From IMG/VR virus record IMGVR_UViG_2740892443_000001: DNA of 6,998 nucleotides. One strand, written 5' to 3'. Position numbers and translations under genes: made by a program. Source of the stretch: a virus (taxonomy: Duplodnaviria > Heunggongvirae > Uroviricota > Caudoviricetes). This document shows, in pieces, positions 1 to 6,310 of this stretch; within the stretch, counting starts at the first letter, position 1; each line of letters opens with the position of its first letter. Under the pieces are notes generated by a model. It did no database searches. It had not been told where the DNA came from and worked only from the letters and a program-made list of their open reading frames with translations.

Positions 1-1164
1 TTACGCCTTCTTTATATCCTCCATAATTCCAGAGTGGGACATATTTGGGACATTATCACCAAAAATGTCGTCTATTTTCCTCGCATGCTCTGTCAAATGA
101 TTAGGCGCAAGGTGAGCATACCTACGAACCATTTCTATGGACTCCCATCCGCCCATTTCCTGAAGCACTGATAATGGGACGCCTGACTGAATCAGCCAGC
201 TTGCCCAGGTGTGTCTGAGGTCATGGAAACGGAAATCTTCAATTCCTGCACGACGACAAGCTGATAGCCATGATGTCTTGCTGTCGATGCGCATCTTCCT
301 GACCGCAGGCGTTGATGTTCCATCTGCTCGCTTAGCCGCCTTGGTATGTACAAACACCCATTTGTGATGCTTGCCTATTTGATCACGCAACACTTTACAG
401 GCGGTATCGTTCAGCGCCACACCAATGGCGCGGTTTGATTTGCTCTCTTCTGGATTCACCCAGGCAACTCGTCGCTGCATGTCGATTTGTTGCCATTCCA
501 GATTTATGATGTTCGACTTTCTCAGACCAGTTGCCAGCGCAAACTTGACGACAGATTTCAGTGGTTCGGGGCACTCATCAATAAGGCGTTTTGCTTCCTC
601 CTTTTCCAGCCATCTGACTCGCTTGTTTCTGACCGCTGGTATCTTGATGACAGGCGCTTTTTCCAGCCACTTCCAGTCGCGTTCTGCAGCACGGAGAATG
701 GCCTTTATCATGGCAAGATGCTTTGCCTTTGTCTGAGTTGATACTGGCTTTGGTTCATAAACAGGCGGTTCTTTACCTTTCCTGATGGCGGCCTGAACTT
801 TCTGTTTCCATATTTCTTTCGTCTTTCTGTTATGCATTCTGCTTACAGCAGAGTAAATCTTTGCCTCCGAGATATCTTTAAGCCTTATACCCTCAAAATG
901 TTCAAGCCAGAACTCAATCCGGCTTTTATCTGAATCGAGAGATTTTTTATCAGCTTTTTCCTCAAGCCATCTTAGGCAGGCCTCTTCAAAAGTGACATCA
1001 GGTAAATCCCCTAGCTTTTCTACTCGCCAGAGTTCTGCTTTTCGCTTGTCGTGCAACTCCTGAGCTTGCCGCTTGTCCTTTGTGCCAAGAGATTCCTTAA
1101 TTCGTTTCCCGCCCGGGAGCGAATACGAGGCATACCATATTTCATTTCTGCGGAAGAGTGACAT
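1..1164 (-). CDS. int: Tyrosine-type phage integrase (lambdoid, e14/Rac-like family)
   Basis: 387-codon ORF on the minus strand, ATG at 1164-1162 and TAA at 3-1. An SD-like GAGG lies 7 nt upstream of the ATG (minus-strand sequence TAACAGAGGAAAGAAA-ATG). The translation carries the C-terminal tyrosine-recombinase signature: [10 protein letters not shown] (HxxR box) and VRRYAHL (catalytic Tyr). Overall sequence matches my recollection of E. coli e14 IntE / Rac IntR-type integrases and is unlike lambda Int; not database-verified. Confidence 0.9.
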
Positions 1165-1391
1165 TTTCTTTCCTCTGTTATGCCATCACCCGCGCTCACC
1201 TGGACAGTATGCAGCGGAGACTGAAGCGCCGCAATGCAGGCTTGCCGTGTTGTGAGGTAAGGAGATTTTGGCTTGGTTGGATCTTTACGTGTTGCCTGTA
1301 GGCGGCCTGTTCGTATCCAGTTGGTGGCGGTTGGTCTGGATATCTTAAGAAACTGACAGGCCTCATCGAGTGTGAGGCTGTATGATTCCAT
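1020..1391 (-). CDS. xis: Excisionase (Xis/AlpA-type HTH protein)
   Basis: ATG at 1391-1389 is preceded on the minus strand by GAGAGAGG with a 5-nt spacer. The translation [31 protein letters not shown] shows the helix-turn-helix typical of Xis/AlpA excisionases. It lies directly upstream of int in the same orientation. The ORF stays open to TAG at 1022-1020, overlapping the int start by about 145 bp in another frame, so the 3' end is uncertain. The upstream ATG at 1439 was not used because it lacks an RBS and would lie inside the plus-strand head-gene ORF. Confidence 0.6.
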
Positions 1392-1414
1392 GGTTACCTC
1401 TCTCAGGAGGGCGA

Positions 1415-1810
1415 ATGACCAAAGAGACTCAATCAACAACTGTTTCAGCCACTGCTTCGCAGGCTGACGTTACTGACGTGGTGCAAGCGACGGAGGGCGA
1501 AAACGCCAGCGCGGCGCAGCCGGACGTGAACGCGCAGATCACCGCTGCGGTTGCGGCAGAAAACAGCCGCATTATGGGGATCCTCAACTGTGAGGAAGCT
1601 CACGGACGCGAAGAACAGGCACGTGTGCTGGCCGAAACCCCCGGTATGACCGTGGAAACGGCCCGCCGCATTCTGGCAGCTGCACCACAGAGTGCACAGG
1701 CGCGCAGTGACACTGCGCTGGATCGTCTGATGCAGGGGGCACCGGCACCACTGGCTGCAGGTAACCCGGCATCTGATGCCGTTAACGATTTGCTGAACAC
1801 ACCAGTGTAA
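1415..1810 (+). CDS. Nu3: Capsid scaffold Nu3 / C-terminal part of the prohead protease C reading frame (lambda-type)
   Basis: ATG 1415 is preceded by AGGAGG (1405-1410); 131 codons run to TAA at 1808-1810, which ends 9 nt before the D start, the arrangement expected for the nested C/Nu3 frame upstream of D in lambda-type head operons. The product is Ala/Gln/Glu-rich and low in complexity, as scaffolds are. The frame is closed by an in-frame TGA at 1373-1375, so the body of protease C is absent. Whether 1415 is the native Nu3 start or an internal Met cannot be settled from the sequence alone; assignment rests on synteny, not on a recalled sequence match. Confidence 0.6.
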   Translation: MTKETQSTTVSATASQADVTDVVQATEGENASAAQPDVNAQITAAVAAENSRIMGILNCEEAHGREEQARVLAETPGMTVETARRILAAAPQSAQARSDTALDRLMQGAPAPLAAGNPASDAVNDLLNTPV

Positions 1811-1819
1811 GGGATGTTT

Positions 1820-2152
1820 ATGACGAGCAAAGAAACCTTTACCCATTACCAGCCGCTGGGCAACAGTGACCCGGCACATACGGCAACCGCGCCCGGCGGA
1901 TTGAGTGCGAAAGCGCCTGCAATGACCCCGCTGATGCTGGACACCTCCACCCGTAAGCTGGTTGCGTGGGATGGCACCACCGACGGTACTGCCGTTGGCA
2001 TTCTGGCGGTTGATGCTGACCAGACCAGCACCACGCTGACGTTCTACAAGTCCGGCACGTTCCGTTATGAGGATGTGCTCTGGCCGGAGGCTGCCAGCGA
2101 CGAGACGAAAAAACGGACCGCGTTTGCCGGAACGGCAATCAGCATCGTTTAA
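1820..2152 (+). CDS. D: Head decoration protein (lambda gpD-like)
   Basis: 110-codon ORF with SD AGGGA (1810-1814) 5 nt upstream of ATG 1820 and TAA at 2150-2152. The translation [43 protein letters not shown]...[36 protein letters not shown] is near-identical to lambda gpD as I recall it. The in-frame ATG at 1814 was rejected because its spacing to the SD is poor. Confidence 0.92.
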
Positions 2153-2170
2153 CCTTACCCTTCATCACTA

Positions 2171-2194
2171 AAGGCCGCCTGTGCGGCTTTTTTT
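2171..2194 (+). terminator. Terminator-like GC hairpin plus T7 run in the D-E intergenic spacer (possible attenuator)
   Basis: Seen directly: GCCGC (2174-2178), loop CTGT, GCGGC (2183-2187), extendable by G-U and A-U pairs at 2171-2173 / 2188-2190, followed by seven T (2188-2194). A second T7 run (2201-2207) lies immediately before the E start codon. Function is not established. Confidence 0.35.
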
Positions 2195-2207
2195 ACGGGA
2201 TTTTTTT

Positions 2208-3083
2208 ATGTCGATGTACACAACCGCCCAGCTGCTGGCGGCAAATGAGCAGAAATTTAAGTTTGATCCGCTGTTTCTGCGTCTCTTTTTCCGTGAGAGC
2301 TATCCCTTTACCACGGAGAAAGTCTATCTCTCACAAATTCCGGGACTGGTAAACATGGCGCTGTACGTTTCGCCGATTGTTTCCGGTGAGGTTATCCGTT
2401 CCCGTGGCGGCTCCACCTCTGAATTTACGCCGGGATATGTCAAACCCAAGCATGAGGTGAATCCGCAGATGACCCTGCGTCGCCTGCCGGATGAAGATCC
2501 GCAGAATCTGGCGGACCCGGCTTACCGCCGCCGTCGCATCATCATGCAGAACATGCGAGACGAAGAGCTGGCCATTGCTCAGGTCGAAGAGATGCAGGCA
2601 GTTTCTGCTGTGCTTAAGGGCAAATACACCATGACCGGTGAAGCCTTCGATCCGGTTGAGGTGGATATGGGCCGCAGTGCGGCGAACAACATCACACAGT
2701 CCGGTGGTACGGAGTGGAGCAAGCGTGACAAGTCCACGTATGACCCGACCGACGATATCGAAGCCTATGCGCTGAACGCCAGCGGCGTGGTGAATATCAT
2801 CGTGTTTGATCCGAAAGGCTGGGCGCTGTTCCGTTCCTTCAAAGCCGTCAAGGAGAAGCTGGATACCCGTCGCGGCTCTCATTCCGAGCTGGAGACAGCG
2901 GTAAAAGACCTGGGCGAAGCGGTGTCCTATAAGGGGATGTATGGCGATACGGCGATCGTCGTGTATTCCGGACAGTACGTGGAAAACGACGTCAAAAAGA
3001 ACTTCCTGCCGGACAACACGATGGTGCTGGGGAACACTCAGGCACGCGGTCTGCGCACCTATCCGGCAGGAAACACTGAATGA
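2208..3083 (+). CDS. E: Major capsid protein (lambda gpE-like), C-terminally truncated at a deletion junction; probably non-functional
   Basis: ATG at 2208 begins MSMYTTAQLLAANEQKFKFDPLFLRLFFRESYPF..., which matches lambda gpE through ...[10 protein letters not shown] (codon 285). The ORF then reads PAGNTE and stops (TGA 3081-3083), giving 291 aa against 341 aa for lambda gpE as I recall it. The GTG at 2181 listed in the ORF track is not the start. The D-to-E spacer of 55 nt matches the lambda arrangement I remember. Confidence 0.85.
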   Translation: MSMYTTAQLLAANEQKFKFDPLFLRLFFRESYPFTTEKVYLSQIPGLVNMALYVSPIVSGEVIRSRGGSTSEFTPGYVKPKHEVNPQMTLRRLPDEDPQNLADPAYRRRRIIMQNMRDEELAIAQVEEMQAVSAVLKGKYTMTGEAFDPVEVDMGRSAANNITQSGGTEWSKRDKSTYDPTDDIEAYALNASGVVNIIVFDPKGWALFRSFKAVKEKLDTRRGSHSELETAVKDLGEAVSYKGMYGDTAIVVYSGQYVENDVKKNFLPDNTMVLGNTQARGLRTYPAGNTE

Positions 3084-3750
3084 ATGCACCCGTGCGGAGC
3101 AGTCGGCCAGCGTGGTGCTCTGGGAAATCGACCTGACAGAGGTCGGTGGAGAACGTTATTTTTTCTGTAATGAGCAGAACGAAAAAGGTGAGCCGGTCAC
3201 CTGGCAGGGGCGACAGTATCAGCCGTATCCCATTCAGGGGAGCGGTTTTGAACTGAATGGCAAAGGCACCAGTACGCGCCCCACGCTGACGGTTTCTAAC
3301 CTGTACGGTATGGTCACCGGGATGGCGGAAGATATGCAGAGTCTGGTCGGCGGAACGGTGGTCCGGCGTAAGGTTTACGCCCGTTTTCTGGATGCGGTGA
3401 ACTTCGTCAACGGAAACAGTGACGCCGATCCGGAGCAGGAGGTGATCAGCCGCTGGCGCATCGAGCAGTGCAGCGAACTGAGCGCGGTCAGTGCCTCTTT
3501 TGTACTGTCCACGCCGACGGAAACGGACGGTGCCGTTTTTCCGGGACGTATCATGCTGGCCAACACCTGCACCTGGACCTATCGCGGTGATGAGTGCGGT
3601 TATAGCGGTCCGGCGGTCGCGGATGAATATGATCAGCCGACGTCCGATATCACGAAGGATAAATGCAGCAAATGCCTGAGCGGCTGTAAGTTTCGCAATA
3701 ACGTCGGCAACTTTGGCGGCTTCCTTTCCATTAACAAACTTTCGCAGTGA
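2941..3750 (+). CDS. L: Tail-tip protein L (lambda gpL-like) lacking its native start; ORF opens from an ATG inside E in a different frame (fusion ORF, likely pseudogene-like)
   Basis: From about 3061 the translation [69 protein letters not shown]...[28 protein letters not shown] matches lambda gpL from residue 4 to its C-terminus, including the Cys cluster; stop TGA at 3748-3750. The native first three codons (MQD) are absent. The only upstream in-frame ATG is 2941, which has an AAGGGG 4 nt upstream and adds about 40 non-native residues translated from the E gene in an alternative frame. Confidence 0.6.
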
Positions 3751-5735
3751 ATCCCATGACAGAGACAGAATCAGCGATTCTGGCGCACGCCCGGCGATGT
3801 GCGCCAGCGGAGTCGTGCGGCTTCGTGGTGAGAACACCGGAGGGGGAAAGATATTTTCCCTGCGTGAATAAGGGACGCTTCCTGAACAACATTAACGCGG
3901 TCAGTAAAACAGACTTTGCTGATAAGCGTGGTATGCGTTATGTGCGGGTTAACGCTCCTGCAGGTGCAACATCTGGAAAATATTACCCTGTTGTTGTTAT
4001 GCGTTCTGCTGGCTCAGTAAGCGAACTGGCATCAAGGGTCATTATCACCACGGCAACGCGAACCGCAGGCGATCCGATGAATAACTGCGAGTTTAACGGA
4101 TTTGTTATGCCTGGTGGCTGGACTGACAGGGGGCGTTATGCTTATGGAATGTTCTGGCAATATCAAAACAATGAACGAGCCATCCACTCAATAATGATGA
4201 GTAATAAGGGCGATGATTTGCGCTCTGTGTTCTATGTTGATGGCGCTGCTTTCCCTGTTTTTGCGTTTATCGAAGATGGCCTGTCAATATCCGCACCTGG
4301 TGCTGATCTCGTTGTTAATGATACGACCTATAAGTTTGGGGCAACAAATCCGGCGACTGAATGTATCGCGGCGGACGTTATCCTTGATTTTAAGAGTGGG
4401 CGTGGTTTTTATGAGTCTCATTCGTTAATCGTTAACGATAACTTGTCGTGCAAAAAACTTTTTGCCACAGACGAAATTGTAGCGCGTGGTGGTAATCAGA
4501 TTCGAATGATAGGTGGGGAGTATGGGGCATTATGGCGTAATGATGGCGCTAAAACTTACCTGCTGCTTACCAATCAAGGTGATGTTTATGGTGGCTGGAA
4601 TACATTAAGACCGTTTGCTATTGATAACGCAACCGGCGAACTGGTTATTGGAACCAAACTGTCCGCAAGTCTGAACGGTAATGCATTAACAGCAACAAAG
4701 CTGCAAACGCCAAGACGGGTTTCTGGTGTTGAGTTTGATGGTTCCAAAGATATTACTTTAACCGCCGCGCATGTGGCTGCTTTTGCCAGAAGGGCAACGG
4801 ATACATATGCCGATGCGGATGGTGGCGTTCCCTGGAATGCCGAATCAGGCGCTTATAATGTCACCCGCTCTGGCGACAGCTATATTCTGGTTAACTTCTA
4901 TACCGGAGTCGGAAGTTGCCGGACCTTGCAGATGAAGGCGCATTACAGAAATGGTGGTCTGTTCTACCGTTCTTCAAGAGACGGTTATGGTTTTGAGGAT
5001 GACTGGGCAGAAGTTTATACCTCGAAAAATCTTCCACCAGAAAGCTACCCAGTCGGCGCACCAATCCCGTGGCCATCAGATACCGTTCCGTCTGGTTATG
5101 CCCTGATGCAGGGGCAGACTTTTGACAAATCTGCTTACCCGAAACTTGCAGCCGCTTATCCGTCAGGCGTGATCCCTGATATGCGTGGCTGGACGATTAA
5201 GGGCAAACCTGCCAGTGGTCGGGCCGTATTGTCTCAGGAACAGGACGGCATTAAATCGCATACCCACAGCGCCAGCGCATCCAGTACAGATTTGGGGACG
5301 AAAACCACATCGTCGTTTGATTACGGCACTAAATCCACGAATAACACTGGTGCGCATACCCATAGTTTAAGTGGCAGCACGAATGCAGCTGGTAATCACA
5401 GCCATAGAGATGGCCGTCGATTTAACCCCAGTGTTTTTAAAGATACTTATCAATATGGTTATACAAGCTCAGGTCAAAATACCTGGGGTGTACAAGGCTC
5501 AGTAGGTATGTCTACGGGGTGGTTAGCGAATACCAGTACAGATGGTAATCATAGCCATTCACTGTCCGGCACAGCAGCATCTGCAGGTGCACACGCGCAT
5601 ACTGTCGGTATTGGTGCTCATACGCACTCCGTTGCGATTGGTTCACATGGACACACCATCACCGTTAACGCTGCTGGTAACGCGGAAAACACCGTCAAAA
5701 ACATCGCATTTAACTATATTGTGAGGCTTGCATAA
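3747..5735 (+). CDS. stf: Chimeric side tail fibre protein: gpK-like N-terminal ~40 aa fused in-frame to a tail-fibre shaft and a lambda Stf-like C-terminal tip
   Basis: One uninterrupted ORF, with GTG at 3747 overlapping the L stop (GTGA) and the first ATG at 3756; stop TAA at 5733-5735. The N-terminus [25 protein letters not shown]... fits the MPN/JAB-type start of lambda tail protein K. The middle part (about 3870-5050) is AT-richer and contains a fibre-type motif ([27 protein letters not shown]). The C-terminus from [48 protein letters not shown] through the HxH repeats to ...[18 protein letters not shown] matches the lambda Stf C-terminal region as I recall it. Confidence 0.8.
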
Positions 5736-6310
5736 TGGCATTCAGAATGAGTGAACAACCACGGACCATAAAAATTTATAATCTGCTGGCCGGAACTAAT
5801 GAATTTATTGGTGAAGGTGACGCATATATTCCGCCTCATACAGGTCTGCCAGCAAACAGTACCGATATTGCACCACCAGATATTCCTGCTGGCTTTGTGG
5901 CTGTTTTCAACAGTGATGAGGCATCGTGGCATCTCGTTGAAGATCATCGGGGTAAAACGGTTTATGACGTGGCTTCCGGCGACGCGTTATTTATTTCTGA
6001 ACTCGGTCCGTTACCGAAAAATGTTACCTGGTTATCGCCGGAAGGGGAGTTTCAGAAGTGGAACGGCACAGCCTGGGTGAAGGATACGGAAGCAGAAAAA
6101 CTGTTCCGGATCCGGGAGGCGGAAGAAACAAAAAACAACCTGATGCAGGTAGCCAGTGAGCATATTGCGCCGCTTCAGGATGCTGCAGATCTGGAAATTG
6201 CAACGGAGGAAGAAATCTCGTTGCTGGAAGCATGGAAAAAGTATCGGGTATTGCTGAACCGTGTTGATACGTCAACTGCACAGGATATTGAATGGCCAGC
6301 ACTGCCGTAG
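5735..6310 (+). CDS. tfa: Tail fibre assembly chaperone (lambda Tfa-like)
   Basis: ATG at 5735-5737 overlaps the stf stop (TAATG), implying translational coupling. The translation [93 protein letters not shown]... matches lambda Tfa as I recall it; stop TAG at 6308-6310. The extreme C-terminus may differ slightly from lambda. Confidence 0.9.

Follow-up and report, generated by a model that had tools for sequence, protein, structure and literature searches.

Lambda is said, following Shaw and Murialdo in 1980 (as cited in PMC8508860), to carry its head protease and scaffold genes C and Nu3 as a nested pair, with an in-frame internal start for the scaffold inside the protease gene. In the intact phages of the DLP12 type (PhiR34_1, ev243, 2G7b, Turner, and Kati), the int-xis end and the C/Nu3 region lie approximately 23 kb apart, with complete early, lysis, and packaging regions between them; both stretches match the locus described here at 99.8-100% identity. 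The DLP12 remnant of Escherichia coli K-12, for which a 47-bp attR repeat has been published (PMC6379469), occupies the same attachment site as this locus. It measures 21.3 kb and retains the nin region, the lysis genes, nohD, and aaaD', with no head or tail genes.

The stretch of DNA analysed here in full (6,998 nucleotides, hereafter the window) is 100% identical over its entire length to the chromosome of E. coli EC596. There, a tRNA-Arg gene ends 15 nt before the int stop codon, in the same layout as in K-12, and the PGAP annotation names the adjoining integrase intD. Downstream come ydfK, a methyltransferase gene, tfaX', appY, and ompT, and then envY. Each border carries 50 nt of the argU 3′ end; the two copies are 98% identical, the second lies between ompT and envY, and the distance between them is 12,058 bp. 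The repeat conforms to what PMC6379469 describes for DLP12. The element is a DLP12-type lambdoid prophage at the argU tRNA gene. A sequence-only reading of the window had looked to e14-like prophages for relatives, and this assignment is rejected on the strength of the argU/DLP12 neighbours, the att repeats, and the intD block. Both K-12 DLP12 and the window are collinear subsets of a PhiR34_1-type genome, and the int-xis block that they share (1-1259) is 99.76% identical, but their breakpoints are entirely different. K-12 xisD is truncated at what would be window base 1259, whereas xis in the window is full length. Moreover, the window retains Nu3, D, E', 'L, K'::'stf, tfa, and pin, unlike K-12 DLP12, and the EC596 remnant as a whole is smaller, at about 12.1 kb.

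The features on which the argument turns are as follows, in window coordinates; ECL27977 is a sister strain.

1-1164, minus strand: intact integrase gene of the intD type (tyrosine integrase, 387 aa; Pfam Phage_integrase, E=5.5e-47)
1020-1391, minus strand: xis, putative excisionase gene, full length at 123 aa, overlapping int by 145 nt as in relatives
1363-1401, minus strand: 3′ remnant of a DUF4222 gene, the last 12 codons plus stop (39 nt), corresponding to PhiR34_1 CDS 1380-1658 and SfI gp30
1373-1375, plus strand: TGA closing the Nu3 frame upstream, inside sequence antisense to xis (frame checked against the ATG at 1415)
1397-1401, minus strand: native Shine-Dalgarno sequence of xis, AGAGG, identical up to base 1401 with the xis upstream sequence of PhiR34_1 and ECL27977
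1399-1401: junction 1, a TCT common to both parental flanks, located by exact flank matching
1405-1410, plus strand: native Shine-Dalgarno sequence of Nu3, AGGAGG, equivalent to lambda 5332-5337 ahead of the ATG at 5342
1415-1810, plus strand: predicted Nu3 scaffold ORF, 131 aa, all from the C-terminal end of protease gpC; 129 of 131 residues agree with lambda gpC 309-439
1820-2152, plus strand: intact head decoration gene D, 110 aa (EC596 annotation)
3060-3062: junction 2 (E'/'L), TAT microhomology, 6,465 bp missing between the truncated major capsid gene E and tail gene L
3868-3870: junction 3 (K'/'stf), ATA microhomology, 7,023 bp missing
3747-5735: K'::'stf, an in-frame fusion ORF of 662 aa made by junction 3

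The arrangement that drew attention to this locus is the back-to-back placement of two gene starts that normally lie far apart in a lambdoid genome. The geometry described by the sequence-only reading holds in every particular. The sequence and the ORF list place the xis start at 1391 on the minus strand (CAT at 1389-1391) and the Nu3-frame start at 1415 on the plus strand (ATG at 1415-1417), so that the 23-bp gap consists of bases 1392-1414. The in-frame TGA at 1373-1375 lies 42 nt before 1415, and the two Shine-Dalgarno sequences, which had been described as sitting on opposite strands of one short stretch, are adjacent, 3 nt apart, with no overlap. An additional in-frame ATG at 1382 yields a mechanical ORF, 1382-1810, that is 11 codons longer than the Nu3 ORF. 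Since intact phages match both flanks at 99.9-100% identity as far as the junction, neither the xis nor the Nu3 start signal can be regarded as a chance motif.

The breakpoint, which the earlier reading had left to be placed to the base, falls within 1399-1401. Against both ECL27977 and PhiR34_1, the window agrees base for base with the xis side as far as 1401 and with the C/Nu3 side from 1399 onwards; in the phage searches, several intact phages match the int-xis side at 100% identity up to and including 1401, and lambda-type homology begins at 1399. The join is direct, with zero inserted bases, and the TCT is the sole ambiguity in its placement. The endpoints thus lie 8-10 nt upstream of the xis start codon and, within C, 14-16 nt upstream of the Nu3 start. 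On the xis side, the correspondence of window 1-1401 with PhiR34_1 18-1418 maps the DUF4222 stump; in intact phages, the DUF4222 gene lies ahead of xis and shares 29 nt with the beginning of that gene. Int and Xis each differ from their PhiR34_1 counterparts by one amino acid (G19E in Int). On the other side, 412 nt of the C frame are left (1399-1810), the protease domain is deleted, and PGAP labels 1400-1810 as an S49 family peptidase with a missing N-terminus. The block that follows (1399-3062, including D) is 99.76% identical to PhiR34_1.

In intact PhiR34_1, the two halves of junction 1, at 99.8-100% identity, are separated by 23,059 bp containing about 35 genes. These begin with the DUF4222 gene, exo, bet, gam, cI, cro, cII, O, P, and ren, continue with nin-region genes including rusA, then Q, a porin gene, S, R, Rz, and bor, and end in the packaging region with Nu1, A, W, B, and the first 908 nt of C. 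The expectation that genes of the classes from recombination to portal should intervene between xis and C is therefore satisfied by PhiR34_1. One could imagine, to the contrary, a phage lineage in which int-xis natively sits directly beside the scaffold and head genes. This notion has next to no probability: among the 163 phage records matching 1150-1900, not one has the xis and C/Nu3 halves at one place, the phages that carry both halves at 99-100% identity keep about 23 kb between them, and the window itself bears a 39-nt DUF4222 stump and a headless C gene.

A second way to dismiss the junction would be to treat it as a chimeric contig in which an assembler joined two prophage fragments. 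Lambdoid prophages are rich in repeats, and junction 1 is present in only 1 of 5,426 complete E. coli genomes, both of which could be taken to favour an artefact. Against this stand an identical 101-bp junction in at least three independent NCBI draft assemblies (GCA_022973495.1, GCA_958310285.1, and GCA_958334245.1, among the matches listed) and an IMG/VR contig that has junction 1 and differs from the window by one SNP. The drafts were found through the stand-alone 131-aa product, which also led to 15 further similar places beyond these three. Moreover, EC596 carries a single copy of the module, with no second prophage copy available to be mis-joined. Hence, the chimera that the sequence-only reading wished to see excluded can be given hardly any credence. 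No match to junction 1 was obtained in metagenome contigs or in GTDB species-representative genomes, but since draft NCBI assemblies and IMG/VR do contain it, this blank is uninformative.

Junction 1 is not the only scar. The window as a whole is composed of four collinear PhiR34_1 blocks (18-1418, 24475-26138, 32601-33411, and 40432-43562), and junctions 2 and 3 are common to the window and ECL27977. We consider it very probable that junction 1 is a non-functional scar of the ordinary decay of a DLP12-type prophage by microhomology-joined deletions. It is a new, lineage-specific instance of a well-known kind of deletion scar. Replication slippage and microhomology-mediated end joining, two RecA-independent processes, typically leave joins at short microhomologies. 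Like other products of this kind of decay, the joins here are direct, with overlaps of 2-3 bp, no filler, and no mobile-element ends. At junction 1, the overlap is 3 bp; since the chance of an overlap of at least 3 bp is 0.05 per junction, this is only marginally beyond chance, and on sequence alone the mechanism is indistinguishable from blunt illegitimate joining. The five mapped scars have microhomologies of 3, 3, 3, 3, and 2 bp, which are jointly very unlikely by chance, and this consistency suggests that the scars would have been made by illegitimate recombination at short homologies, through slippage or end joining, with both mechanism and deletion order inferred. There are no Chi sites in the window.

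Is the loss of 23,059 bp one event or several? The sequence-only reading had proposed one large deletion or an illegitimate join. The second part stands, in view of the 3-bp microhomology and the absence of filler, IS, or att sequence; a single large event is not established. At the spot of junction 1, ECL27977 has 1,612 bp more than the window, comprising Rz', bor/iss, and more of C, and bounded by two joins of its own: one (Ja) between the xis upstream region and Rz, with 16,122 bp missing, and one (Jb) between the bor downstream region and C, with 5,326 bp missing. Strains of the NT1N25 type have Ja in common with ECL27977, and Jb, J2, and J3 have been lost from them in a further deletion. 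ECL27977 therefore has every scar and no private one, and is most simply read as standing for the ancestral condition, with junction 1 as the final deletion of 1,612 bp. The loss thus probably proceeded stepwise, through three deletions of 16,122, 5,326, and 1,612 bp.

The contending history is a single deletion of 23,059 bp from an ancestor that had only junctions 2 and 3 and in which the early, lysis, and terminase-portal region was still entire, with Ja and Jb arising independently in ECL27977. This is possible, if somewhat doubtful. It requires the same number of events as the stepwise model and is thus equally parsimonious, and the SNPs do not separate the two: the shared flank and prophage, about 34 kb in all, contain 8 SNPs, each of which is a derived singleton when polarised with K-12 and PhiR34_1, and the resulting star tree does not resolve the deletion order. 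On the other hand, it demands a clade of ECL27977 and NT1N25 that acquired two deletions and zero shared SNPs over those 34 kb, ECL27977, with all scars and none of its own, looks as an ancestral state should, and no complete genome was found with junctions 2 and 3 and an intact early region, among the only 5 records that cover at least 80% of the window. In ECL27977, Ja has a product of its own, in that the ATG of its left flank is fused in frame to Rz (7501-7932 of the ECL27977 segment), and rzpD of this strain, annotated by PGAP as an intact gene of 143 aa, is this junction product.

Under the stepwise reading, then, a lambda-like temperate phage of the DLP12 type, with PhiR34_1 as its intact relative, would have integrated at argU, and the prophage would have lost most of its genome through serial homology-independent deletions, each at a chance microhomology of 2-3 bp. 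Junction 1 would most likely be the last of these, arising at the TCT in an ECL27977-like ancestor; this step would have cost the prophage the 3′ portion of the DUF4222 gene, Rz', and bor/iss, as well as 442 bp of an already truncated C.

It is fair to ask whether an enzyme rather than chance microhomology made the cut, be it an IS element, Int acting at a secondary att site, or a serine recombinase such as Pin or YbcK. IS3 and IS1203 are active in the same prophage in sister strains, and other scars of this prophage family have recurrent endpoints that are precise to the base. Up to the very base of junction 1, the sequence on both sides is that of the native phage, and neither an IS end nor an att-like core is present. 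Neither endpoint recurs as a breakpoint: with approximately 130 IMG/VR loci retrieved per anchor, the sole non-native flank was junction 1 itself, and the T/A step of the recurrent sites is absent from it. Consequently, we regard an enzyme-mediated origin of junction 1 as very unlikely.

The recurrent endpoints deserve description in their own right, particularly as the other scars of the family cluster at two fixed bases, which random slippage does not predict. The first is in stf, between PhiR34_1 40433 and 40434 (...CCCGAT/AAGGGACGC, also ...T/AAGGGACGCTTCC), where the IMG/VR scans gave five different left-hand partners: K' in the window, the bor downstream region in the NT1N25 type, the Nu1 site described below, an unidentified gene, and an in-frame ORF resembling a prohead protease. 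The scar of the NT1N25 type re-enters stf at exactly the base used by junction 3, and further examples besides the window are L013 (5270-5271), L090, L094, and L123. These loci contain 22 further stf breakpoints, none of which has more than one partner. The second site lies between PhiR34_1 19845 and 19846 at the 3′ end of Nu1, 14 nt before gene A (...GAACTGAT/ACCGG, also ...GATGAACTGAT/A). It has 11 different right-hand partners, 1.5-20.6 kb downstream, in A, C, Z, J, and stf, plus two unplaced (loci L006, L056, L089, L090, L116, L159, L196, L212, L232, L246, and L254). Here, the retained side is base-exact every time and a TA is always within the overlap, and the next 30 nt hold only one other junction. 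The common Qin-type nohA/J-related scar shares the same base.

Several explanations for these sites were considered. No IS end is present at any of the Nu1 or stf hot-site joins. IS1203 as the source of the endpoint common to junction 3 and NT1N25 is rejected, as its extra copies in sister strains lie elsewhere, and a widespread ectopic Nu1/stf copy acting as a homology boundary is rejected because this scar is rare in complete genomes. A comparison by eye of the stf site with Pin/Gin-type crossover sequences gave no convincing match. The hot sites may derive from a former insertion of the IS3 family that was excised together with flanking DNA by the IS-excision enhancer, IEE (PMC9943667). Whatever their origin, junction 1 has none of the properties of the Nu1 and stf hot sites.

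What survives on the left of junction 1 is a putative excisionase gene of the P22/SfI type. An ungapped alignment of its product covers all 116 aa of the Xis annotated in phage SfI at 81% identity, and the annotated start aligns; SfI xis overlaps int by 124 nt, as against 145 nt in the window. Pfam HTH_17 is matched at 35.5 bits (cut-off, 27), whereas the score for NCBIfam TIGR01764, 27.7, is slightly below its cut-off of 28.8. At least 1000 contigs contain the exact Xis sequence, which is called excisionase in some sources. In the EC596 annotation, by contrast, PGAP calls a 22-codon "incomplete" helix-turn-helix pseudogene at window 1326-1391 (9326-9391 of the EC596 segment). Given the full-length match to SfI, the HTH_17 hit, and the sequence on at least 1000 contigs, this call is probably an annotation artefact, and it is likely to be systematic for the Xis family with an int overlap of about 145 nt.

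On the right, the ORF at 1415-1810 is predicted to encode a scaffold of the lambda Nu3 type. It corresponds to the 3′ third of C, is read in the C frame, and starts from the same internal AGGAGG and ATG; the difference is that lambda Nu3 is nested in a complete C, whereas the window Nu3 stands alone, C having lost its first ~303 codons. In detail, the ATG at 1415 is equivalent to Met-309 of lambda gpC and to lambda base 5342, with the same AGGAGG-N4-ATG. The question of which start is meant by "Nu3" affects the claim of the sequence-only reading that the scaffold ORF begins at 1415. The claim stands for the start at Met-309 that is preceded by a Shine-Dalgarno sequence; it does not stand for the start given by the lambda RefSeq annotation (NC_001416), in which nu3 begins at an ATG at 5132, encodes 201 aa, and has no recognisable Shine-Dalgarno sequence, as that position lies in the deleted DNA. 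The ATG at 5342, with AGGAGG 4 nt upstream and a product of 131 aa, is the one chosen by gene callers when C is truncated. The 131-residue form beginning at Met-309 is presumably the experimentally determined and accepted scaffold isoform of lambda Nu3. A literature search on the experimental N-terminus of Nu3 yielded nothing decisive, and the Met-309 start is adopted here on the Shine-Dalgarno sequence and the sequence match.

The 131-aa product is on record on 289 contigs, and other prophage remnants also carry a stand-alone Nu3-D unit, with Nu1, a RadC-family gene, or a DNA methylase gene as the upstream partner. In these (L006, L009, and L011), C is broken 50-160 nt ahead of the Nu3 ATG. 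Because the look-up used the exact 131-aa product, the finding of several such remnants is probably an ascertainment effect.

As to whether anything is made from this locus, it cannot by itself yield particles, as it has no portal, protease, or terminase gene and carries E, K, and stf only in truncated form. The sequence-only reading had argued that no native promoters remain at the junction, and this agrees with the intact gene order, in which the leftward early promoter that serves xis and the late promoter that serves the head genes are both in the DNA that was deleted. A strict consensus scan of 900-2300 on either strand gave no sigma-70-like promoter. A terminator scan of the same interval reported none, yet it missed a hairpin followed by a T-run at 2174-2194, and such negatives weigh little. 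With the native promoters gone, xis, normally in the pL operon, and Nu3-D, normally served by the late promoter, would probably be poorly expressed or silent. The missed element is a GC-rich hairpin (GCCGC-CTGT-GCGGC) followed by seven T, located between D and E and resembling an intrinsic terminator.

Nevertheless, the preservation of both start regions invites the suggestion that a compact divergent cassette of translatable xis-int and Nu3-D has been kept for the benefit of the host. The deletion spared both ORFs and both Shine-Dalgarno sequences, its breakpoint lying exactly between them, and int, xis, and both att copies are intact. From the opposite perspective, the sequence is 99.8-100% identical to active phages, which leaves no time for a signature of selection; the junction is limited to one rare lineage; no promoters were found; and E, K, and stf are truncated. 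Nor is the position of the breakpoint remarkable, as a deletion running into either ORF would have been just another scar. A selected arrangement is thus highly improbable. Taken more broadly, the idea that junction 1 is anything more than neutral, whether as an excision-competent mini-element that preserved its ribosome-binding sites and has cryptic or read-through expression of Nu3-D, or as the last step of an enzyme-driven trimming, is still unlikely. The hint of such trimming comes from the recurrent endpoints in Nu1 (11 partners) and stf (5 partners), hallmarks that junction 1 does not have.

The right part of the remnant holds a further repeat. The 3′ end of tfa is present as a 154-nt direct repeat of 82% identity, at 14143-14296 and 16914-17067 of the EC596 segment, the first copy being window 6143-6296. 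The two copies flank pin, ydfK, and the methyltransferase gene, correspond to tfaD and tfaX of K-12, and are possibly a relic of an invertible tail-fibre segment.

The direct significance of junction 1 is small: it documents, to the base, one further route by which prophages of the DLP12 type decay, and it provides a lineage marker for the EC596-like clone. For the annotation of lambda, it is of use to note that the RefSeq nu3 start at 5132 differs from the Shine-Dalgarno-preceded start that survives here. With int, xis, attL, and attR intact, the remnant may be excisable, and if it still is, this would matter for the stability of the appY-ompT region that it carries.
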